Source of the DNA: Candidatus Poribacteria bacterium
GTDB lineage: Bacteria > Poribacteria > WGA-4E > PCPOR2b
DNA: 64,000 bases
Reading direction: 5' to 3'
Assembly (NCBI GenBank): GCA_965116925.1
Contig: OZ220744.1
Span: 960,001-1,024,000 of the forward strand
Both the position numbers and the translations under genes were made by a program. Shown here piece by piece: positions 18,744-44,121 of this stretch. A model generated the notes under the pieces. It was given only the letters and a program-made list of their open reading frames with translations. It did not search any database and was not told where the DNA came from. Numbering within the stretch: position 1 is the first letter of the stretch; each line of letters begins with the position of its first letter.

Positions 18744-18963
18744 TATAGCAGATTTTAGAATTAATGGTACACGCCAAACCGGTGCGGTTTGATGAAGTTT
18801 AAGTATTTAAATCGGTAATCCCTATTTTCCTCGAAACATACGGTAGGCGCGGTTTTCAACCGCGCCGGTGTCGCTAGCAAATTACCGAATTATTTTTTTA
18901 ATTTTCATCAAACCGCACCTACCGGGGGGCGCGAGTGTTTCTTTATTTTTGGAATTCACTATA
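18744..18963. mobile_element. MITE family C (TATAGTG-ended) with nested insertion
   Basis: Ends TATAGCAGATTTTAGAATTAATG ... GAATTCACTATA shared with copies at 39011, 50217 and 52699. Confidence 0.8.
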
Positions 18964-25068: not shown

Positions 25069-25121
25069 AATATCATAGGGGCGCGGTAGAATCTCAACTT
25101 GGTTGGAAGGAGTTGATCGCG

Positions 25122-25668
25122 ATGCAATCGCAAGAAAGAATCACAGGAGAACAACTGCTTGAGATGTCCTCCAAGCTGATTGGGCATGTCGAATTGGTAA
25201 AGGGAGGAATTATACAGACGGGCCCAGCAGGAGATATTCATGGCGAGTTGGCAATGATTCTTGGATCGTTGCTGCAAATATATGTTAAACAGAATGACCT
25301 CGGCAAGGTATATGCAGCAGAAACAGGATTTTACACCGCGTGAAATCCGGATACGGTCCGCGCTGCCGATGCAGCTTTCATTGCAAAACATAGGCTGCCT
25401 GAGAGCCCTTCTGACGGTTATCTGGAAATCGTCCCTGATCTGATGGTCGAAGTGGTCTCGCCATACGATCGACCGAGAGAAATCCTCGAAAAGGTCAATG
25501 AGTGCTTGGAGGCCGGTGTGAAGTATCTGGGTAGTCTATCCAAAATCTCGTCAGATTTACGTTTATAAATCTGATTCTTCCGTTGAAGTCCTCTCCGGAG
25601 AGGATACCTTGATTGGTGACGGTGTAATTCCGGGTTTTCAGTGCCCCGTTACCGAGCTCTTTGAATGA
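25122..25668 (+). pseudogene. Uma2 family endonuclease pseudogene
   Basis: ELVKG, AETGF, then in-frame TGA at 25341, NPDTVRAAD, PDLMVEVVSP, a frameshift near 25525, and WVVYP...GDGVIPGFQCPVTELFE in another frame. Confidence 0.85.
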
Positions 25669-31495: not shown

Positions 31496-32593
31496 ATGCA
31501 GCCCCGCATCGCCGGTTACGATTTTGCACGATCTCTTGCGTTATTTGGACTAGTGGCTGCAAATTTTATCTCAGGTGTTAAAATAGCTGAGTACGGATTG
31601 TACTACGTTAGCCACGCACTGCTACACTCCCTTATGCGAAGCGGAGCTGTTGCAACCTTCTTGGTGCTGGGTGGAGTCGGTATATCGCTCCTGACACAAC
31701 AGGTCCGAGCAACAAACGATGCACATCGAATCGTAGATAATCGAAAGCGATTGATAAGACGCGCTGCGTCCTTATTAGCAGTTGGAATTGGTTGTAGCCT
31801 AATTTGGAACACAAATTTTCTATGCTTCTACAGTGTTTGTATTATTATTGGTGTGCTGCTGCTGACAGTTTCCAATCGTTGGTTATGGTTACTCACCTTC
31901 GTTTTCGTTGCAGTCTTTGTTGTATTCATATCTTTAATTTATGGCTATTTTGACTATTACGATGTCATTCGGAATTGGAAAACGTTTCAGGATAGTGACG
32001 CTTGGACAATCAAAGGTGTGGTCTTTCGTCTGTACTTCAACGGATTTAACTCAATGTTTTCCTGGACGGTTTTTCTGTTGATTGGTATGTGGTTAGGACG
32101 GCAGGAGGTGCACTATCCCAGAGTGCGTAGAGATGTGCTCTTCGGCGGAATCGGCGTTGCCTTGGTTATGGGCGGTGTTTTATGGATGCTGTCTTTCGAG
32201 TTACCACGTAGCTTTCATCCAGCAAGCATTTCGGAGTGGTTGGGTATGGAAAATGCCACGATACTGGCCATATCACTTAGTCTCTTTGCTATGTGTGGAA
32301 TTGCCAGCGCAATCACTGGAGGCAGCCTCATGCTAACCGAGAAATATCCAGATGCAAAATGGATAAAACCGTTCATAGCAACTGGCCAACTTGCCCTGAC
32401 GCTCTATGTTGTCCATTTGGTTATCGGCAGGGGGCTGCTTGAAGTACTTGGGGTTGTTGGAAGTAAAGCACTCCCGTTTGCAATCGGAAGTGCCGCCATA
32501 TTCTGTATCTGCGCGGTCATATTTTCTCATGTTTGGAGAAAACGATTTGAGCGAGGGCCTTTGGAGTGGGGAATGCGCCGAATCACAGGATAG
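31496..32593 (+). CDS. DUF418 family membrane protein, paralog 1
   Basis: RIAGYDFARSLA N-terminus, G.LALTLY..H, W...F.RGPLEW C-terminus. Confidence 0.85.
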   Translation: MQPRIAGYDFARSLALFGLVAANFISGVKIAEYGLYYVSHALLHSLMRSGAVATFLVLGGVGISLLTQQVRATNDAHRIVDNRKRLIRRAASLLAVGIGCSLIWNTNFLCFYSVCIIIGVLLLTVSNRWLWLLTFVFVAVFVVFISLIYGYFDYYDVIRNWKTFQDSDAWTIKGVVFRLYFNGFNSMFSWTVFLLIGMWLGRQEVHYPRVRRDVLFGGIGVALVMGGVLWMLSFELPRSFHPASISEWLGMENATILAISLSLFAMCGIASAITGGSLMLTEKYPDAKWIKPFIATGQLALTLYVVHLVIGRGLLEVLGVVGSKALPFAIGSAAIFCICAVIFSHVWRKRFERGPLEWGMRRITG

Positions 32594-32660
32594 CTTGGGG
32601 CGGTTCTGAACCCCTACTAATTTTGGAATTGACGGGGCGTGTTCAAGCGGGAAAAATCAG

Positions 32661-33764
32661 ATGAACAAGCGTATCGCCGGTTACGATTTTGCTCGATCAC
32701 TCGCGTTGTTTGGATTGGTGGTTGCCAATTTTAGGGGAGAGGTTGAACAAACTGACTACGGGCTGTATCACCTTATCCAGTCACGATTACATTCTCTTAT
32801 ACCAGGAGATGCTGGCACAATCTTCTTGGTGCTAGGTGGAGTCGGTATATCTCTCCTGACACAACAGGTCCGAATAACAAGCGATGCACATGGAATTACG
32901 GATAACCGAAAGCGATTGATACAACGCGCTGCGTCCTTATTAGTGGTTGGTATCTGTTGTAACTTAATTTGGACCACAAATTTCCTAGGCTTCTACAGTA
33001 TTTGTATTATTATTGGTGCACTGTTGCTGACGGTTTCCAATCGCTGGTTATGGTTACTCGCCTTCATGTTCGTCCTCATCTCTGTTGTATTCATTGTTTT
33101 GGTTCACGGCTATTTTGACTATTATGAGTTCCTCCTGAATCGGGACGTGCTTCGGGATACCAACCCTTGGACGGTCGAAGGTATGGTCTTTCGTCTGTAC
33201 CTCTATGGTTTTAACTCGATACTTTCTTGGACAGCCTTTCTGCTGATTGGTATGTGGTTGGGACGGCAGGAGGTGCACCCTCCCAGATTGCGAAGGAATA
33301 TGTTGTTCGGCGGAATCGTCGTTACGCTAGTTGCGGAATGTGCTTTATGGCTGCTAATTTTCGGTGTTTTATGGCTACCGAGTGGCTTTTATCCAACAAG
33401 TATTTTAGAGGGGCGTATAGGCAATATGTTCATACTGATTAATTCGCTTGATCTCTTTGCTAAGTGCGGAACTACCGCTGTAATCATTGGGGGGAGCCTC
33501 ATGCTAACCGAGAAGTATCCAGATGCGAAGTGGACAAAGCCGTTTATAGCCACTGGCCGGCTTGCTCTGACGCTCTACGTCGCCCATCTGGCCATCGGTA
33601 TAGGACTGTCAAAGGTTCTTGAGGTTCTGGAAAATAATGCATATCCATTTGCAATCGGAAGTGCGATTATATTTTGTATATGCGCGGTCATATTCTCCCA
33701 TTTTTGGAGAAAACGATTTGAGCGTGGACCGCTGGAGTGGGGTATGCGGCGAATCACGGGATAG
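32661..33764 (+). CDS. DUF418 family membrane protein, paralog 2
   Basis: Same motifs as the upstream gene; tandem duplicate. Confidence 0.85.
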   Translation: MNKRIAGYDFARSLALFGLVVANFRGEVEQTDYGLYHLIQSRLHSLIPGDAGTIFLVLGGVGISLLTQQVRITSDAHGITDNRKRLIQRAASLLVVGICCNLIWTTNFLGFYSICIIIGALLLTVSNRWLWLLAFMFVLISVVFIVLVHGYFDYYEFLLNRDVLRDTNPWTVEGMVFRLYLYGFNSILSWTAFLLIGMWLGRQEVHPPRLRRNMLFGGIVVTLVAECALWLLIFGVLWLPSGFYPTSILEGRIGNMFILINSLDLFAKCGTTAVIIGGSLMLTEKYPDAKWTKPFIATGRLALTLYVAHLAIGIGLSKVLEVLENNAYPFAIGSAIIFCICAVIFSHFWRKRFERGPLEWGMRRITG

Positions 33765-33911: not shown

Positions 33912-34027
33912 GATAACAGAGATAACCGAGCAATCATTGATTGATATGTGTCAATGTTTTATCAAAGTTGTCACGAAATTTGCACGGGTATAAACTCAAT
34001 CCTATAAAATTGAGGAGGAAAGAGAGC

Positions 34028-34966
34028 TTGAAGAGACATATTTATGCACTTATCACCTTCGTCTGCATTGTTAGCTACTTCGGTTGTGCTGGTGATAAGA
34101 CACCGACGGGTTGGGGGCAAATCGAGGCGGGAACAGAGGCGCACCTGTACGGTGTACACTTTGTTGACGCCAAACGTGGCTGGGCAGTTGGCACAGGCGG
34201 TTTGGTGCTATTCACACAAGATGGCGGTTCGACATGGCTAGTTCGCTCGCCTCAAAGAGCGATTACTCCTAACGCACTCAATAAAGTGCATTTCTCTACT
34301 CCCAACAACGGTTGGTCGGTCAGTATCAGAGGACAGATCCACTATACGGGAAGCGGCGGCAAATCGTGGACGGCACAAAAAAGCAATACGGACAGTGGAT
34401 TGCTCGACATCTATTTTCTAGATGAAACAGAAGGTTGGGCGGTCGGTGGAGGTGGTATCATCCTTCACACGAATAACGGTGGCGGTTCGTGGAGTCGCCA
34501 AAATTCACCGTCGACACCACACCTGTGGGCTGTGCATTTTGCTGATACGAAGCACGGCTGGGTTGTTGGCAAGGAGGGGAAGATCCTTCACACAAATGAC
34601 GGCGGCGGGCTCTGGTATGAACAACAGAGCAAGACCGAGCGATCACTGCTCGGTGTCTATTTTGTCAACCCACAGACGGGTTGGGTCGTTGGAACGGGGG
34701 GATTGATCCTGCATACTACCGACGGGGGTGCGAACTGGCAGTCCCAGAAAAGTGCTACAACGAAAACCTTGCGTGGCGTTGCATTTCGGGATTCCAAGCG
34801 GGGTTGGGCGGTCGGTGAAGATGGACTAATCCTACATACCACCGATGCCGGGGCGACGTGGTTGCCTCAAGCGAGTGGATCGCCAGAGCATCTTCTGGAC
34901 ATCTGTCTGTATAAAGCACACGCTTGGATCGTTGGGTCAAAAGGCACCATTTTACGTCTCAGTTGA
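34028..34966 (+). CDS. YCF48-like BNR/Asp-box beta-propeller lipoprotein
   Basis: Repeats L..V.F.D...GW.VG..G.IL.T.DGG..W; lipobox-like FGC; TTG start after GAGGAGG. Confidence 0.9.
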   Translation: MKRHIYALITFVCIVSYFGCAGDKTPTGWGQIEAGTEAHLYGVHFVDAKRGWAVGTGGLVLFTQDGGSTWLVRSPQRAITPNALNKVHFSTPNNGWSVSIRGQIHYTGSGGKSWTAQKSNTDSGLLDIYFLDETEGWAVGGGGIILHTNNGGGSWSRQNSPSTPHLWAVHFADTKHGWVVGKEGKILHTNDGGGLWYEQQSKTERSLLGVYFVNPQTGWVVGTGGLILHTTDGGANWQSQKSATTKTLRGVAFRDSKRGWAVGEDGLILHTTDAGATWLPQASGSPEHLLDICLYKAHAWIVGSKGTILRLS

Positions 34967-35071: not shown

Positions 35072-35623
35072 ATGTATTGGAAATTGTTTTGCTTGTTCAG
35101 CCTCATCCTCTGCTTGCTATCATTTTTCGGATGTTCAGACGATACAAGCGACAAAATGACAGATACCGGCGATGTAAATGAAGATTCATCGTTTCAACTT
35201 GCCCCTAATTTCACGCTGCTGAACACAGAGCTGGAAGAAGTTAGCCTCTCTGATTATCAGGGTAAAGTTGTTATTGTGGATTTCTGGGCGACATGGTGTA
35301 AACCTTGCGAGGAAGAAATTCCACGCTTCATTGAACTATACGCCGAATATCGAGCGCAAGGATTTGAGATGATCGGTATCTCAACGGATGATGTAGAAGG
35401 ACGTCTAAAAAGTATTGAACTTTTCTTTCAGGAACTCAGTAAAGAAGGCTTCGACATCAATTACCCGATTCTTCTAGCAGCGTCCGACGTTATTCAAAGC
35501 TATCAAGTGCCTGTACTACCGTCCGCATATCTTATCAATCGTGATGGAGAAATTGTAAAGGTGTTCAGCGGTGCACAAGAAGATAAAGCAACCTACGAAA
35601 GCGAGTTAAAAAAATGGTTATAA
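35072..35623 (+). CDS. TlpA/ResA family thiol-disulfide oxidoreductase lipoprotein
   Basis: APNFTL, GKVVIVDFWATWCKPC, lipobox FGC. Confidence 0.93.
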   Translation: MYWKLFCLFSLILCLLSFFGCSDDTSDKMTDTGDVNEDSSFQLAPNFTLLNTELEEVSLSDYQGKVVIVDFWATWCKPCEEEIPRFIELYAEYRAQGFEMIGISTDDVEGRLKSIELFFQELSKEGFDINYPILLAASDVIQSYQVPVLPSAYLINRDGEIVKVFSGAQEDKATYESELKKWL

Positions 35624-37047
35624 GAGATGGACTAAATAAAATTCAACTAATGATGGTTTTGGCGGCTGCTCTTATGTTGTGCCTTAGTTGCGGCAGCGAC
35701 GACGAATCTATCGTGGAACCGGATACCTCCGTGGAGCCAGACACATCAACCGGGGAGCCTGATCCTGTTGCTGCAACAGGCAGCCTAAAGGGAACGGTCG
35801 ACAAGATTGACGGTATCTCAGTGGCTATCCGCGTCCTACAAAATGGCAATGCCGTTGCCTCTGCTACAGCGGATGCCGATGGAAACTACCAAATTGATAA
35901 TATTGCACCGGGGACTTATACAGTCGAAATTGGCGCGAAGGGATATGAAACTGCCAAACAAACCGTTCAGGTTAGCGCGGATAAAGTTGCATCGCTGGAT
36001 AGAGCGGTGCTCAAGGAGTTAGAAATCCCCGTTGCCCATATCCAAGGCACCTTATCTGATCGACTAAAGGGAAGTCCCCTTAGCAACGTCCGCGTTCGAC
36101 TTGTTGATGCAGCGGGTAATTCCCGCGAGGTGTTGACGACGCAAACGGGTGCCTATCAATTTGAAAATGTCCCCACAGATCAGCGATTCACCGTCATCGT
36201 CCAGCTTGACGGGTTTGAAAAGGAGGAGTTTTCTGTTGATCCAATCGCAGCTGGCCAAACCACTATGTTGGACATCGCGCTTGATGCGTCTCTCCTTATT
36301 CGCGGGCTCGTACTAGATCAGGTCACGAAAAAACCTGTTGTCAATGTGCGTGTTCAATTAACCGATGGAGCAGGGGCTGTCTTGGAAACAGCAACAACGG
36401 GGTTGGGTGCCTTTGAGTTTGAAGGGGTTACACCGGATCCGCAACTTACGCTTACTATTGAGTCCAATGAACATGAGAAACTCGAATTGCCTGTTGGTTC
36501 CATTGGAGGCGGAACGGAACATTTCGATCTCCAGCTTATTCCGCTCAACCCGGAGCAACTTCCAGAAGGCGATGGTCTTGCTATTGGCTTGAAAGCGCCG
36601 GACTTCAACCTGCCTAATAGTGATGGGGAGATGGTAGCCCTTGCAGATTACGCAGGCGAGCAAAAGGTTGTGCTCGTCTTTGACCGCGGTGGATGGTGAG
36701 GTTCATGCATTGTGCAACTCGGAGAGTTGCAACAAGATTATGCAGCAATTCAGGCGGCGGGGGCTGAACTTCTCGCAATCAGCACAGATAACGCAGCACA
36801 GGCAAAGAAGGCGATTGCGGATGTTAAAAGGCGGGTTGGCGTTGAAATTGAATTTCCGCTGCTTGGAGACCCGGAATTGAAGGCAATTAATGCGTACAAC
36901 GCAAGGGATCCACTAAATCCTCGGATCGCACGTCCCATGACCTACATCATTGATGAGAGCGGGGTTATCCGCTGGAAATTCCTTGATGTGCGCGTTGGAA
37001 ACCGGCTGAAGGGCGATAGGATTGTGGCGGAGTTGAAAAGTTTGTAG
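35614..37047 (+). CDS. Selenocysteine-containing lipoprotein: three carboxypeptidase-regulatory-like domains plus peroxiredoxin-like (AhpC/TSA) domain, TGA at 36697-36699 read as Sec
   Basis: ORFs 35614-36699 and 36712-37047 are in frame. Read-through gives APDFNL...KVVLVFDRGGW-U-GSC-IVQLGEL...ELLAISTD...FPLLGD...RPMTYIIDESGVIRW; a SECIS-like hairpin follows the TGA. Confidence 0.85.
36710..36735 (+). promoter_or_regulatory. Putative bacterial SECIS element
   Basis: TGCAACTC-GGA-GAGTTGCA stem-loop (extendable by TTG/CAA) starting 11-14 nt after the TGA, with G in the apical loop. Confidence 0.7.
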
Positions 37048-37108: not shown

Positions 37109-37342
37109 ATGTTAAACGTTCAATTTGAAAGTGTGTCTGAAAACCGTGTCTTAATACCTAAGGGGACTCTGGAAAAGCTAATCCAGTTAGCTAGCCAAGT
37201 TGATGAAATTGAAATCAATGAGATATGTGATAAGACGCAAGCAGAACGTGGTTCGCTGCAAGGGATTTGGAAGGGAAGTCAAGTCAGTGAGAAGGACCTA
37301 CTTGATGCTCGCCGTACTCTTTTTACCTATGAGGAGCCTTAA
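37109..37342 (+). CDS. Putative antitoxin of a VapBC-type pair
   Basis: 77 aa, RGSLQGIWKG motif, stop overlaps the PIN toxin start (TAATG). Confidence 0.7.
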   Translation: MLNVQFESVSENRVLIPKGTLEKLIQLASQVDEIEINEICDKTQAERGSLQGIWKGSQVSEKDLLDARRTLFTYEEP

Positions 37343-37640
37343 TGAATTATGTGACTGATACGCACGCAATCGTCTGGTATTTCGCAGACGATCCGAGGCT
37401 AAGTCCAAATGCGCGTCTAGCTTTTGAGCAAACAATAACAGTTGGTGTGATTATTATTCCTATCATTGTGTTGGCTGAGATAATGTACATCTCCCAGAAG
37501 GGAAGAATTTCTATGACCTTTGAAGAAACTCTTTCCCATATTGAGACGTATGAGAATTTTCGCATTGCCGCATTGGACCTTGATATTCTTGGGGTTGCGG
37601 CGAACGTTGGCGGCGATTTAGAAATGCACGATAAACTATA

Positions 37641-39005
37641 CTAAAGTTTAGACAATTTTAATGCAAAAAGGCAGAAAAGAGGTTATCCTTTCAGAAATCC
37701 ATCACAATTTTGAAAGGAGAAGTTATGTACCTCATATTCTGCCTGAATGCTATTTTAACCGATTTTCGTCCGTTATTCAAGTCTCAAAACTTTCATCTGT
37801 TTTGTGTCTTTGTTGTGGGACTTATCACACAGCGCGAAGGTGCGACGCTGACCGGCATTTATCAAGCGGTTCGTCCGAAAACGGGTTACCACTCGCTGGT
37901 GAAGTTCCTTTCGCGTGGCAAGTGGGACGCCGATAGAGTCGGTCACCATCTGCTGAAGTTGTTACAGAGGTGTTTCGATAACTGGGTCTACGTTTACGAT
38001 GAGACGCACGCACGAAAGACCGGCGAGACACAATTTGGACTTCATTTTTTCAGGAACCATCGCTATCACACACGCAACACGAATCAATCGAAGTTTCACC
38101 ATGGTCATCAGTTTGGTGCATTGGGATTACTTTGTAGCACCGTCCACGAGACGATACTTTTTCCGGTGTTTGTCAAGTTGATGTGTCCACAGACAAAGCG
38201 CGACACTAGTGAGTCAGTCCTCAAACGGATGTGCAGCCGCATCCCTGCGGGACTGATTATCTTTGACCGGGGATTCGCTCGACAGAAAGTGTTTGGCTGT
38301 GTCCTTAAAGCGGGACATCACCTGTTGTGTCGTGCCAAGTCGAATGCAGTGTTCTATCGGTTACCTACCGCTGCCAAGCAATCCAAACCCGGCAGACCTA
38401 AGAGATACGGCAAACGGATTCATCTGCCGTATCTGCGGTATAAAACGACTGACATTGACGACAAACAGTATGCCATAGCAAGTATAGTCGCCCGAACCAA
38501 AATGTGTCCACAACCCGTTCGGGTCGTGGTGATGCGAACGCGTGACAAAAGGCGTAAGCCGTTTCGATACTTCTGTGTCTTTACCACTGACTTAACTCTA
38601 GATTTACCGCAGATTGTTCGATACTACCAAAAGAGATGGTTGATTGAGACCGCCTTTCGGGACACCAAGCAACACTTCGGATTTGACACCTATCGGGTCA
38701 AGTGTCGAAAAAGTATCAATCGGTTTGTCCAACTCAGTTTCATAGCCAGTTGCATGACCCAACTGTTATTCGCTGTCACTTCCCATACTGACACGCCGGT
38801 AACCATCGAGCAGGTAACTCAGACATTGGGCATTGATTGGTATCGACCCGCTAAGTTGACACGCGGGTTGATGGTGCGGTATCTACGGACTTTAATGGAA
38901 AACCGATTAGTTTCTGCGATGTTCGGTAAAAACATCAATGCCGACGATATTCAACAAACCCTTGATACGGCTACATCAAGAAAATAAAAATTGTCTAAAC
39001 TTTAG
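37641..39005 (+). mobile_element. Insertion sequence (IS701/IS4-like DDE), 1365 bp
   Basis: Perfect 19-bp TIRs CTAAAGTTTAGACAATTTT / AAAATTGTCTAAACTTTAG; 9-bp direct repeat TAAACTATA at 37632-37640 and 39006-39014. Confidence 0.93.
37725..38987 (+). CDS. DDE transposase
   Basis: YDET...K.G, FDRGF, YY.KRW.IE..FR..KQ.FG; intact ORF with RBS AAGGAG. Confidence 0.92.
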   Translation: MYLIFCLNAILTDFRPLFKSQNFHLFCVFVVGLITQREGATLTGIYQAVRPKTGYHSLVKFLSRGKWDADRVGHHLLKLLQRCFDNWVYVYDETHARKTGETQFGLHFFRNHRYHTRNTNQSKFHHGHQFGALGLLCSTVHETILFPVFVKLMCPQTKRDTSESVLKRMCSRIPAGLIIFDRGFARQKVFGCVLKAGHHLLCRAKSNAVFYRLPTAAKQSKPGRPKRYGKRIHLPYLRYKTTDIDDKQYAIASIVARTKMCPQPVRVVVMRTRDKRRKPFRYFCVFTTDLTLDLPQIVRYYQKRWLIETAFRDTKQHFGFDTYRVKCRKSINRFVQLSFIASCMTQLLFAVTSHTDTPVTIEQVTQTLGIDWYRPAKLTRGLMVRYLRTLMENRLVSAMFGKNINADDIQQTLDTATSRK

Positions 39006-39010
39006 TAAAC

Positions 39011-39116
39011 TATAGTGAATTCAAAAAATAAACAGACACTTTCGCCCTCCACCTGGTAGGCGCTGTTTCCAACTGCGCCGATTTGGAGTGTCTCATTAAT
39101 TCTAAAATCTACTATA
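39011..39116. mobile_element. MITE family C (reverse orientation) inside vapC
   Basis: TATAGTGAATTC ... AATCTACTATA ends with TA duplication; internal GTAGGCGC hairpin. Confidence 0.85.
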
Positions 39117-39215
39117 ATTGTCGCAACTACGCTTTATTTCGATGCCCATTTGATTACCAAAGATGGGCAAATCACTCAAAGCGGAGTTGTAAATACTGTT
39201 TGGTAGACTTAGTGA

Positions 39216-40394
39216 ATGCATTCAATGACAGATAAAATACGACCCACATCCGATCCCATTGTTGCACAGATTCAAGTGGACTGCGACCAGATTTCACGTA
39301 CACAGGCTGCCATACCACAATCGGTGAGTCGCCGCCGATTTTTGCGTCAGGCGTCGAAAGGCGTGTTTGGGATGGGACTCGCGTTGGGAGGCGTAGCTTC
39401 AGCCACTAAAGGGGCTTTTGCTCAGTTGGGGCGTCAGTCCGGCGGTTCGCCGGGAGAGATAATCGAAGAAGAACTCACGCCGCTGGTCGAAGCGAGAAGT
39501 GAAAAAGTTTGGAATGGCGACATGCTTGACGAGGGGGTTGTCAGTGAGATGATTGATCGCGCAATGATGAAGCTGACCGGGCTTGATTCTGCGAAAGAGG
39601 CGTGGAAGGATTTTGTCCTTCCGACAGACATCGTTGGAATTAAAATCAATCCACTTGCCGGAGAGAAGTTGAGCACCCATCGCATAATCGTTGATAAGAT
39701 TATTGAAGGGTTGTATGGAGCGGGTATCCTCAGCAATCAGATCATCATCTGGGATCGGTTTGAATCTCACCTAATCAATGCGGGGTATGAGATCAATCAA
39801 AGCGATCGAGGGGTTCGGTGCTTCGCATCGGACAGCGAAGGTGTCGGTTACGACGATGAGGTTTTCTACGAAACTGAGAAGGATGTCGCGGTTCGCCGCG
39901 AGAATGAAAGTATCCTGTCCCGATACACAAAACTCCTCACTAAAGAGTTGACAGTGGTTATTAACGTCCCGGTGATGAAGCATCATGGGATTGCTGGTGT
40001 GAGTGGTTGTCTGAAAAACCTCGCCTTTGGGAGTGTGGATAACACCTCCCGTTTCCACTCAAATCCCATAAATTGTAACCCCGCTATCGCTGATATCTTC
40101 GCGCATACTGTCCTCAAAGATAAAGTTGTTTTGAACATCGTTGATGGGTTGCTTGCCGCGTTCGATGGGGGACCGACGTATGACCCCAACGGGGTTTGGC
40201 AGTATGGTGGTATCCTTGTGAGTCAGGATCCGGTTGCATTGGACCAAATTGTCTATCAAACGATTGAGGAAAAGCGGAAGGAGCTTGAGTTGCCGACCCT
40301 CTCGCGGATATCGAAATACATCCGTTCAGCATCAAGGATGGATTTGGGCACTAACGACCTTGATGATGTGGATTATCAAGAGGTAAAGATATAA
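39216..40394 (+). CDS. Tat-exported DUF362 domain protein
   Basis: SRRRFL twin-arginine signal, VGIKIN, INVPVMKHH..AG..G.LKN, DPVALD; start uncertain. Confidence 0.85.
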   Translation: MHSMTDKIRPTSDPIVAQIQVDCDQISRTQAAIPQSVSRRRFLRQASKGVFGMGLALGGVASATKGAFAQLGRQSGGSPGEIIEEELTPLVEARSEKVWNGDMLDEGVVSEMIDRAMMKLTGLDSAKEAWKDFVLPTDIVGIKINPLAGEKLSTHRIIVDKIIEGLYGAGILSNQIIIWDRFESHLINAGYEINQSDRGVRCFASDSEGVGYDDEVFYETEKDVAVRRENESILSRYTKLLTKELTVVINVPVMKHHGIAGVSGCLKNLAFGSVDNTSRFHSNPINCNPAIADIFAHTVLKDKVVLNIVDGLLAAFDGGPTYDPNGVWQYGGILVSQDPVALDQIVYQTIEEKRKELELPTLSRISKYIRSASRMDLGTNDLDDVDYQEVKI

Positions 40395-40451
40395 TTGACT
40401 GAAGGGCGAGAAGAATCTGTTTCACATTTGAGACAAAAGGAGATAAACGCT

Positions 40452-40691
40452 ATGAAAAGTCTTTGGTTAGGTTGCACGGTTTTGGTTGTAGTTTTCGGAT
40501 TAATCGCTCTCTCCGGCTGCGTCACAACTTTCACCTCGAGCGGACAATTACAAGTTGGGTTGTCCCAATCGGCGAACGAAACGGTAGACATCCTTGCGGA
40601 TTTCGAAGCTAGCGAAGCGACTACGGTTGCCGGTGATGTGACGAAAAAAGCGGGTAGCATCTGTGCGGGCGGAGCTTGTATAATCTACTAA
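40452..40691 (+). CDS. Small lipoprotein
   Basis: RBS AAGGAG, MK plus hydrophobic core plus LSGC lipobox; Cys-containing tail ICAGGACIIY. Confidence 0.75.
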   Translation: MKSLWLGCTVLVVVFGLIALSGCVTTFTSSGQLQVGLSQSANETVDILADFEASEATTVAGDVTKKAGSICAGGACIIY

Positions 40692-40779
40692 AAATTATCT
40701 GACTTTATTCATGGGGACAGGCCATCCTACGGAACAGCTTTGGGAGTAGTGCCCCTATTTTTTCGGGAGGAAACAGGAG

Positions 40780-41994
40780 TTGCGAAAACGGTTTCATCGC
40801 TCTTCATTTAAGCCAATTTACTATATATTCATGATAACGCTACTACTGGTTGAGGCTTCACTTGCGTCTGCTCAACTCCGACGCGAATACGGTCAGCAAC
40901 TGTTACAACAGAAGACGGAAGCACCCGTAGCCTTTGAATCTGATCTCACTATCGACTATGAGGTAAGCAATGTCTTTAACAATCACGTCGAATTTGGACT
41001 GAGCATCGATCCAAATACAAGTAGCCTTGCTAGACGTGAAGACCCACAACTCATAGGTGTAATCAACCGTGTTGGTGTCAATCTTCAGGGGACCTTACCG
41101 ATTGGGAAACGTTTTGGGCTCACGTTGCAATACTATCCACAATTGGAAAATTATATCGGTGAGAATGGAAAACTCAATGAGTTTGATGCGTTCACAGATC
41201 TCTTTTTGACCGAGCTCAGTTATCGTCCAACAGCGCAGCTGCCTATCTTGAGTGTATCACATCAGTTACAGCGATTGGATCGGAGAGACGATGCCTTTGA
41301 CAACCTGCAACGCCAAATCAGTTTCCGCTTCGGTAAGCTATTGGAATATAATCTTTACATCAACCGCTTTGACGACGAAATGACACGGCGTGCAGATTTC
41401 CTACTCGTTGGTTCGACAATGCATCAAGGGCGAGCAAGGATACAGTTGGGGATTCTCAAATCACTATTGGCGAAATTGGAGTATTCACTGGAGCAGGAAA
41501 GTTATGAAGGCAACCTAAATGACCTATTGTTGGGCATCGCTGGGATTGAAAAGGGAGATTCGCGAACAGATCTGCGAAACCTTGTGTCGGCGAAATTGAT
41601 TCAGATTCCAGCGGCGCGACTCCTCTTTCAGCAGGAGTTGAACCTACTTCTGAGTAACTCAAATGTCGGTTTCTACGATTTCTCTACAATTGAAGCAGCG
41701 GTTGGGGCGTTCTACAAAATCAACGACGGAAGTTGGGCGCGTCTACGATTATCGCGATTGGGTATTACCTTCGATGGCCGCCGGGTGCGGGGTGCGGATG
41801 GTTTTGTCGATGAGAACGCAGAGAAACGACGGGATAATCAATTCGGCGTAACCTTCCAGATTAATTGGCAGCTCCGCAATTCCCTGACGCTTCTTGCAGA
41901 TTACCAACTCACACTCAATGACACCAATGAAAACTTTGACTTCTTGAATTACACCCACAATGTTGCGTCTCTGACGCTTCAAGCAACCTATTAA
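40780..41994 (+). CDS. Putative outer-membrane beta-barrel protein
   Basis: Signal peptide, amphipathic beta strands, C-terminal aromatic residue (LTLQATY). Confidence 0.7.
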   Translation: MRKRFHRSSFKPIYYIFMITLLLVEASLASAQLRREYGQQLLQQKTEAPVAFESDLTIDYEVSNVFNNHVEFGLSIDPNTSSLARREDPQLIGVINRVGVNLQGTLPIGKRFGLTLQYYPQLENYIGENGKLNEFDAFTDLFLTELSYRPTAQLPILSVSHQLQRLDRRDDAFDNLQRQISFRFGKLLEYNLYINRFDDEMTRRADFLLVGSTMHQGRARIQLGILKSLLAKLEYSLEQESYEGNLNDLLLGIAGIEKGDSRTDLRNLVSAKLIQIPAARLLFQQELNLLLSNSNVGFYDFSTIEAAVGAFYKINDGSWARLRLSRLGITFDGRRVRGADGFVDENAEKRRDNQFGVTFQINWQLRNSLTLLADYQLTLNDTNENFDFLNYTHNVASLTLQATY

Positions 41995-43746: not shown

Positions 43747-43779
43747 CTCATTATGATGTAGTCTATGGAGGGAACAATC

Positions 43780-44121
43780 ATGAAAGATAACCTTGTTGCT
43801 TGGATTGCTATTGCGCTGCAAGTTGTAACTCTGGTCGGCGGTATTCTTTTTTACGTAATTTCGCTTGGTGCTGATCTTCGCACCATTAAAACCGAAATAT
43901 CTGGTCTTAACACTGAAATATCTGGTCTTAAAGCGGATATAAGAGATGTCCGTAACGAGATTAAAGATGTCCGTAACGAGATTAAAGATGTTCGTAACGA
44001 GATTAAAGATGTTCGTAACGAGATTAAAGATGTTCGTGATGAACTTAAAGAGGATATCAAGACCCTTAACCAGAATTACATAGATCATCTTGCTCATCAT
44101 ATCGGAAGTCCCAAACCATAG
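43780..44121 (+). CDS. Small membrane-anchored coiled-coil protein with heptad repeats
   Basis: N-terminal TM, (EIKDVRN)n heptads, RBS GGAGG, strong promoter. Confidence 0.8.
   Translation: MKDNLVAWIAIALQVVTLVGGILFYVISLGADLRTIKTEISGLNTEISGLKADIRDVRNEIKDVRNEIKDVRNEIKDVRNEIKDVRDELKEDIKTLNQNYIDHLAHHIGSPKP
43894..44050 (+). repeat. 21-bp coding tandem repeats
   Basis: GAAATATCTGGTCTTAA twice at 21-bp period, then about five units of ATTAAAGATGT[C/T]CGTAACGAG. Confidence 0.9.

Follow-up and report, generated by a model that had tools for sequence, protein, structure and literature searches.

A predicted stalked lipoprotein with a UxxC redox head, very probably read through an in-frame TGA, and its conserved partner genes in Candidatus Poribacteria

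Selenoproteins of the peroxiredoxin (Prx)-like type that carry a thioredoxin-like UXXC motif (U, selenocysteine, Sec) instead of TXXU are described in the accessible part of PMC1088965, and the accessible text of a 2026 inventory (PMC13188914) has an entry 'Prx-like thiol:disulfide oxidoreductase', with PF00578 and the motifs UxxC/UxxU. Lipoprotein selenoproteins of other kinds, SaoX and SaoC, appear in the available portion of bioRxiv 2022.07.06.499078. A system of DsbD, a thioredoxin-like protein, a small secreted Cys-tailed DUF4266 protein, DUF3570 and ApbE has also been described (Meheust et al. 2021, PMC8238504). Here we analysed a stretch of 64,000 nucleotides (the window) from a Candidatus Poribacteria bacterium (GCA_965116925.1, contig OZ220744.1, positions 960,001 to 1,024,000 of the forward strand), and focused on the gene at 35614-37047, which an earlier note had proposed to be a selenoprotein with an unusual architecture. 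The class of its head is already known; what this analysis adds is the module of partner genes.

We observed that 35614-37047 on the plus strand is a single 477-aa frame, interrupted solely by the TGA at 36697-36699 (residue 362, U362), and that the residues around this codon read VFDRGGW-U-GS-C. Gene calling under table 11 yields two open reading frames (ORFs) of 361 aa and 111 aa instead; the earlier note had recognized these as one frame and had expected callers to split it, and both points held. The features of the gene are as follows.

35614-37047, plus strand: selenoprotein gene, 477 aa on read-through; predicted lipoprotein with three beta-sandwich domains and a Prx-fold UxxC head
35614-35691, plus strand: predicted lipoprotein signal peptide, up to lipobox Cys26 (motif pattern)
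About residues 27-52, after the signal peptide: acidic/Pro linker, within the stretch (24-52) that has low confidence in the AlphaFold2 model
35779-36543, plus strand: three CarboxypepD_reg (PF13620) beta-sandwich stalk domains, about residues 56-135, 140-223 and 227-310
36577-37044, plus strand: AhpC/TSA (Prx-fold) head, with U362-G-S-C365 and the invariant R440-P441
36697-36699, plus strand: in-frame TGA, inferred selenocysteine codon U362
36714-36730, plus strand: predicted apical hairpin of a bacterial selenocysteine insertion sequence (SECIS), with a 7-bp stem and a GGA loop 24-26 nt past the U of UGA

Pfam searches found one complete AhpC-TSA (PF00578) domain lying across the TGA (residues 324-454, profile positions 1-123 of 124; 95.9 bits against a cut-off of 26), as expected from the claim that the TGA stands at the first Cys of a WCxxC motif and that the two halves form one domain. 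N-terminal to the head, CarboxypepD_reg was matched three times (121 bits); these are the three carboxypeptidase-regulatory-like repeats that had been noticed. The AlphaFold2 model (from a 28-sequence alignment; mean predicted local distance difference test, pLDDT, 85.7; predicted template modelling score, pTM, 0.56), a check that the earlier note had suggested, has an N-terminal helix, a low-confidence linker, three all-beta domains, modelled as beta-sandwiches, and an alpha/beta head of Prx fold. Foldseek matched the stalk domains to Gram-positive pilin/TIE stalk proteins, and the head to the Bcp/AhpE peroxiredoxin folds. The proposed lipobox (L-S-C) is conserved: of 28 aligned homologues, at least 90% keep Cys26. 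This motif predicts that the protein is exported and is lipidated at Cys26, and LolA is present in the genome. A periplasmic location is at least as likely as the surface.

The TGA is almost certainly a selenocysteine codon. The genes selA (E 1e-159), selB and tRNA-Sec(TCA) are clustered in the genome at C1:2373929-2377236, and selD, carrying its own in-frame TGA, is also present; thus selA, selB, selC and selD were all found. The hairpin 3' of the TGA is 96.7% paired over 26 homologous sequences (slid controls pair 14-53%). Two of its pairs show two-sided changes, and the covariation score was reached by 0 of 500 shuffles, a test that kinship inflates. All 126 distinct active-site contexts of the family carry TGA, and never TAA/TAG or Cys. 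The synonymous codons that keep the stem are near-fixed in these contexts (CAA in 121, CTC in 119, GAG in 120 and TTG in 124 of the 126), while in the genome background CAA makes up 49% of Gln codons and TTG 19.5% of Leu codons. Weighing against this reading is the energy of the hairpin, which was matched by 112 of 2000 synonymous shuffles (z -1.1 to -2.4).

Cysteine at the U362 column, which the note had proposed to look for, was found in 58 non-Poribacteria loci of other phyla (with a search pattern that selected for Cys) and also in the relative P0161. Most of the 58 have an N-terminal extension of less than about 110 aa, and several have signal- or lipobox-like ends. UxxC at the TGA is not a chance match, because it occurs in just 352 of the 9660 genome TGAs lying between open frames as against 31 of 31 homologous heads (loci L028-L057, the frameshifted L039 excluded). 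The motif-only and coding-score genome scans (9660 and 501 candidates) are too noisy for a selenoprotein census, and are used here as background only. The labels are ours: f1-f5 are families, g5 is a genus, G numbers are genomes and L numbers are loci.

It is extremely unlikely that the TGA is a true stop (in a pseudogene, between two proteins or by error) or encodes another residue. In favour of a true stop, the two halves are stored separately in databases, and no clear Shine-Dalgarno site precedes the start. However, a stop here would cut a single domain, parting the nucleophile position from the Cys that partners it, and it would leave the invariant TGA and the SECIS constraint unaccounted for. 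Moreover, the genome has distinct tRNA-Trp(CCA) and tRNA-Sec(TCA), and ordinary genes elsewhere use TGA as their stop. An assembly error, which the note had named as a refuting possibility, is not the cause, since the codon is crossed by contigs of two public runs from separate studies, one identical over 663 nt and the other with a single differing letter over 577 nt, and the TGA persists in orthologues at 32-84% identity. The run with no difference may be the source sample, and the position of the single difference in the other was not displayed. The runs holding window DNA include sponge metagenomes; RNA-library contigs, which may not be transcripts, span the gene. The machinery, the SECIS-type hairpin, the conservation and the Cys homologues together bear out the selenoprotein claim.

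The splitting of this gene extends to the databases. With 8000 candidates scored, 70 of 73 database relatives stop exactly before the TGA, and their C-terminal halves are filed as separate entries. Close homologues (68-83% identity) are found in Candidatus Poribacteria, and the family profile (E<=1e-25) was matched by 117 of the 121 sampled genomes of the phylum. Among the matches listed, each one that includes the head has one TGA, and six also span TAA/TAG; nine cover the N-terminal half only, and 194 further rows stand outside the listing. The 137 distinct full-length family proteins range from about 150 to 490 aa in length, and 122 have a lipobox pattern within the first 60 aa. In family f2 the Sec gene is often duplicated or triplicated in tandem.

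The number of stalk domains in relatives ranges from none to three (the hidden Markov model under-counts the first domain), and for this reason we conclude that the stalk is a variable spacer and not a fixed ruler. The extended stalk of the earlier note is therefore correct for this protein, with its three domains, but the three-domain form is not essential. A deep profile search with the whole protein retrieved mostly long stalk-matching repeat proteins, with the redoxin head in 0 of the best 150 outside the family; a Cys-containing form of stalk plus head may exist elsewhere. We also observed a second sub-branch with the motif [HSN]RG[KQ][LF]-U-PVC (L202, L203, L313, L199) that fills the module slot in family f4; in G020 both this sub-branch and the main one are present. 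The orthologue at L039 (G017) has several frameshifts in its head, by assembly error or as a pseudogene.

The conserved partners at 35072-35623 and 39216-41994, which the earlier note did not mention, are the best functional clue. The gene order in the window is Ycf48-like, TlpA-like CxxC lipoprotein, Sec gene, insert, DUF362, 79-aa lipoprotein and barrel.

33941-34966, plus strand: Ycf48/BNR-repeat protein; the upstream neighbour in family f1, accessory
35072-35623, plus strand: TlpA/ResA-like CxxC lipoprotein, 183 aa, with a 10-nt overlap with the selenoprotein start; the Cys counterpart in the module
37109-39120, plus strand: strain-specific insert splitting the operon (antitoxin-like ORF, PIN gene, DDE transposase of an insertion sequence (IS), repeat); outside the module
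39216-40394, plus strand: DUF362 protein, 392 aa, with a twin-arginine-like motif; usual neighbour, separable from the module
40452-40691, plus strand: small lipoprotein, 79 aa, with lipobox Cys23 and the C-terminus C71-x-G-G74-x-C76-x-I-Y; proposed substrate/electron shuttle
40780-41994, plus strand: predicted 16-stranded outer-membrane beta-barrel (structure model), single copy

The mature peptide of the small lipoprotein has 57 residues with two Cys, and C23, C71, G74, C76 and I78 are kept in all 65 aligned sequences. Searches of Pfam, NCBIfam, PDB and Atlas gave no relative of it. The barrel model has 16 strands and no separate plug domain (pLDDT 84, pTM 0.81), and the family has no conserved Cys; a structure search matched it solely to barrels of a generic 16-18-strand kind (Z 17-19), none of which stood out. 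We considered the barrel as a Slam/type XI secretion system exporter and rejected this, as SlipAM (PF04575) scored 16.4 bits against 22, in 1 of 43 members, and the model has no TPR region.

Neighbourhoods were counted at the best 80 of 102 small-lipoprotein loci. DUF362 was present at all 80, a Sec head upstream within 6 kb at 76, TlpA at 33 and the barrel at 23, and all 90 heads at these loci were UxxC. Of the four loci without a Sec head, three have TlpA and one has neither. Co-occurrence was followed in one set of 61 genomes. The barrel was found in 55 and the small lipoprotein in the same 55 (53 through a profile search and two, divergent in sequence, through manual reading of G045 and G046, where they sit between two Cys TlpA genes and the barrel). 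The module contains the Sec protein in 49 of these 55 genomes, and the other six have Cys TlpA-type lipoproteins in the module. With a single-protein query, the TlpA orthologue was found in 17 of the 61 genomes and in none of the 37 f2 genomes; all 36 module-bearing f2 genomes have Sec copies. A stalked Sec gene is also missing from the six genomes with neither small lipoprotein nor barrel, the match in G052 being a short lipoprotein elsewhere.

The DUF362 protein behaves differently. G026 and G052 keep its orthologue with the Sec gene, small lipoprotein and barrel all missing, and in f4 and f5 it is located apart from the module. These two observations make DUF362 a frequent but separable neighbour, and the co-travelling unit is the Trx-fold lipoprotein(s), the Cys-tailed lipoprotein and the barrel. 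DsbD was found in 59 of the 61 genomes, and in four g5 genomes its gene precedes that of TlpA by about 7 kb. In genus g5 (G044, L314:6889-8172) we also observed extra repeat-like genes between the small lipoprotein and the barrel, in a cassette without the stalked Sec gene.

We further examined the chemistry that the head is likely to perform. Alignment to AhpE and Bcp places U362 on the Thr/Ser column and C365 on the peroxidatic Cys, with Arg358 on the Prx Pro column and Pro441 on the catalytic Arg column. The Prx motif PxxxT/SxxC(U) is not kept, the -4 column being Arg in 134 and Ile in 3 of the 137 proteins, and never Pro. The R440-P441 site reads R-P in 117 of the 137, and a further Cys occurs in only one; we take the Pro at this column to be the thioredoxin cis-Pro. 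The dipeptide of the motif is UPFC in 73, UGSC in 9, UGFC in 8 and UPVC in 8 of the 137, with others in the remainder. All 18 matches of the NCBIfam Prx/BCP/PrxU models were far under cut-off, and an NCBIfam ResA match was also under its cut-off. In contrast, true TxxU Sec-Prx genes in the same genome have R-x-T-F/V at the Prx Arg column. As PxxxTxxC is absent and a thioredoxin-type Pro is present, we favour a disulfide reductase over a peroxiredoxin for the head. The 'UxxC peroxiredoxin-like head' of the earlier note was thus right in its fold and in UxxC, but the motif is of thioredoxin type, the class has long been known, and a reductase is likelier than a peroxidase. A reducing role is favoured because a full-length DsbD, next to an exported UxxC thioredoxin, is present, while searches of the 99%-complete genome gave neither DsbB nor VKOR.

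Our proposal, which we hold with evenly balanced confidence, is that the UxxC head would act as an envelope thiol-disulfide reductase, fed by DsbD, that reduces the CxGGxC tail of the small lipoprotein, with the tail as a shuttle at the predicted barrel. The UGA would be decoded as Sec via SelB and the hairpin, a step for which the indications are strong, and the protein would then be exported and lipidated at Cys26, going by its motif. Judging from the residues, the U362 selenolate would attack the substrate disulfide and C365 would resolve it, in a thioredoxin-like manner, and DsbD, given the genome content, would re-reduce the head. Synteny and co-loss point to the 79-aa lipoprotein, with its Cys pair on a short Gly-rich tail, as the likely substrate, and the stalk domains may serve as variable spacers or adaptors. 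The final acceptor, as a guess, would be a substrate that contains a disulfide or a metal and is handled at the barrel. A bolder extension, tentative and on balance unlikely, is an undescribed flavin-free envelope thiol relay in Poribacteria, in which electrons would pass from DsbD to the stalked selenoenzyme or a Cys TlpA, and then to an RNR (ribonucleotide reductase)-style swinging Cys pair on a lipoprotein sitting in a dedicated 16-strand barrel, for delivery to, or gated uptake of, extracellular disulfide/metal substrates in the sponge host.

Several observations count against the proposal, and some of them concern the head. Its fold is nearer AhpE (Z 24.2, root-mean-square deviation (rmsd) 1.6, 150 aligned) than ResA (Z 17.7, rmsd 1.9, 134 aligned), the invariant Arg440 adjoins the Pro441 that aligns to the Prx Arg, and R-A/S/T replaces R-P in 9 of the 137 members, with 11 unmatched. 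The head could be a selenol peroxidase, with a glutathione peroxidase-like Sec at the first position, C365 resolving and TlpA recycling it, that removes envelope peroxides. The closest fold is a Prx scaffold, Arg440 could serve as the catalytic Arg, and the TlpA gene overlaps the start of the Sec gene; the sponge habitat is also plausibly oxidant-producing. We nevertheless consider a peroxidase unlikely, since the Prx Pro and Thr columns are lost and Pro stands at the Arg column, the TlpA orthologue was not found in any f2 genome, TxxU Sec-peroxiredoxins are already encoded in the genome, one of them with an N-terminus that resembles a signal, and co-loss with the small lipoprotein and the barrel would be left unexplained.

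The remaining difficulties lie with the partners. DsbD is usually unlinked to the module and persists in G026 and G052, and the genome has other exported Trx-fold proteins. The co-loss consists of two genomes, one of them in 40 contigs and each 95% complete, and related genomes do not count as independent. DUF362, moreover, adjoins the small lipoprotein in 80 of the 80 best loci, and so may be the client. If this were so, the Sec protein, directly or via the small lipoprotein, would keep the Cys or cofactor of a DUF362 protein exported by the twin-arginine route reduced, as a maturation or reactivation factor. In three families the DUF362 gene does stand with the Sec gene on one side and the small lipoprotein on the other, and C265 and C287 of the DUF362 protein are invariant. 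DUF362 shares a Pfam clan with lactate racemase according to the accessible part of PMC11770544, and the link rests on that statement, as a PDB sequence search with DUF362 gave no match. This role is very unlikely, however, given that G026 and G052 keep DUF362 without the Sec gene, TlpA, small lipoprotein and barrel, and that the f4 and f5 modules sit away from it.

The head might also serve many clients as a general disulfide reductase or isomerase of the envelope, its neighbourhood being conserved for co-regulation only. The varied motif dipeptides, the tandem paralogues and the many exported selenoproteins of the genome agree with such a role. We regard it as quite unlikely, because it does not account for the matched loss with two unrelated genes or for the substitution by TlpA in the same slot.

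The genome holds further candidates of this kind. At C1:5523907-5526364 (L186), DsbD is preceded on the same strand by an exported UxxC thioredoxin with KFHADW-U-GSC. Besides the gene at 35614-37047, at least 12 in-frame TGA candidates have redox motifs and GG-loop hairpins; those at C1 positions 150426, 519567, 629035, 2098070, 4745540 and 5526204 have signal-like N-termini, and others lie at 671329, 1526837, 4704821, 4721121, 4745993 and 6018658. They include a tandem TxxU Prx and SelD, and presumably DUF3179-like, HMA-like, Trx and AhpD-like proteins. The six exported-looking candidates make the envelope look rich in selenium.

Other features of the window were also noted. The insert begins with a VapBC-like pair at 37109-37644 (a small ORF and a PIN-domain gene); the PIN ORF is just 100 aa, stops at the start of the IS region and may be truncated. 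The DDE transposase element at 37670-39007 has 9 genome copies of at least 1000 nt that are 95-100% identical, and one public contig lacks 37637-39114. The repeat at 39011-39120, seen also at 18792, 50321 and 52760, is an intergenic element like a repetitive extragenic palindrome or miniature inverted-repeat transposable element (REP/MITE-like), with about 276 genome copies of at least 50 nt and very high depth in public runs. The frame at 25113-25565, presumably a Uma2-type gene, has an in-frame TGA at 25341, no redox motif and a weak hairpin, and looks like a gene with a premature stop rather than a selenoprotein. At 31496-33764 there are two tandem DUF418 membrane-protein paralogues (1-3 copies in relatives), and at 43765-44121 a 118-aa ORF whose hydrophobic N-terminal helix is accompanied by nearly perfect, coiled-coil-like heptad repeats (EIKDVRN).

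In literature searches, we found no paper tying Poribacteria to this selenoprotein or its architecture. The word 'Poribacteria' was not found in the accessible BSepDB text; its database entries and supplements, outside this search, may list members. The accessible text of PMC13188914 does not list the architecture, which agrees with the earlier view of it as uncharacterized, and does not contain the words 'carboxypeptidase', 'signal peptide' or 'periplasm'. New here is a Poribacteria-wide module with a co-loss profile, Sec/TlpA substitution and the barrel as a core partner. The analysis also puts right a systematic fault of annotation, in which a gene close to the Poribacteria core, often present as two or three tandem copies, is halved in the database entries seen. 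For most Prx-like UxxC selenoproteins no substrate is known; here there is a candidate substrate together with a natural Cys substitute (TlpA), and therefore what Sec contributes to the redox chemistry of the envelope can be tested directly in vitro. Should the module move reducing power to the outer membrane, a dominant sponge symbiont would have a new way of acting on its surroundings.

When we compared the locus with known systems, the head resembled the Prx-like UxxC selenoproteins in its AhpC-TSA domain, in UxxC and in having Cys homologues of the FYRGxWCPxC type in many phyla. The label cd02970 (PRX_like2) may apply, its fit to the head being one of motif resemblance only; it also appears in a table in the accessible text of PMC13188914. 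Unlike these selenoproteins, as far as the available descriptions extend, the present family has a lipoprotein signal, 0-3 CarboxypepD_reg domains, Sec only across the phylum and fixed partner genes. BCP/PrxQ and AhpE are the closest solved folds of the head (TM-score 0.86-0.89 of target, Z 22-24), but the head differs from them and from the TxxU Sec-Prx in lacking the PxxxTxxC motif and, in sequence alignments, in having Pro441 at the catalytic Arg column, with the invariant Arg440 beside it. With TlpA/ResA/CcmG the protein would share a membrane-tethered Trx-fold reductase design, here predicted to be fed by DsbD/CcdA, and a Pro at the cis-Pro column; unlike them, it has a fold nearer Prx, a Sec nucleophile and, as proposed substrate, a Cys-tailed lipoprotein rather than apocytochrome c.

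For the small lipoprotein, the nearest parallel is the Cys-pair shuttle of class I/II ribonucleotide reductases. In class I enzymes the active site is reduced by two Cys on a disordered C-terminus, spaced CXXXXC in the class Ia enzyme of E. coli (accessible part of PMC9669993), and such pairs are re-reduced by thioredoxins (accessible part of PMC4078304). The small lipoprotein similarly has a terminal Cys pair on a short tail with CX4C spacing, as in E. coli class Ia, but it would be exported, lipid-anchored and stand-alone, and no sequence homology was found, so that the likeness is one of analogy only.

The DUF4266/DUF3570 system is matched here by a thioredoxin-like protein and DsbD, while the tail is CX4C rather than CXC and the Trx-fold protein uses Sec and a stalk. 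DUF4266 (PF14086) matched 0 of 25 small-lipoprotein members at E<=1, and DUF3570 (PF12094) matched 0 of 43 barrel sequences (the genome search for DUF3570 matched no control genome either). ApbE was not found in the 99%-complete genome by a search that matched 8 of 14 control genomes. With no DUF4266 match, a different Cys spacing and no ApbE, the module is not a member of this system. It is best read as a possible flavin-free, selenium-using analogue of the DsbD/Trx/DUF4266/DUF3570 arrangement, and would, if this is true, give that poorly understood system a flavin-free parallel.

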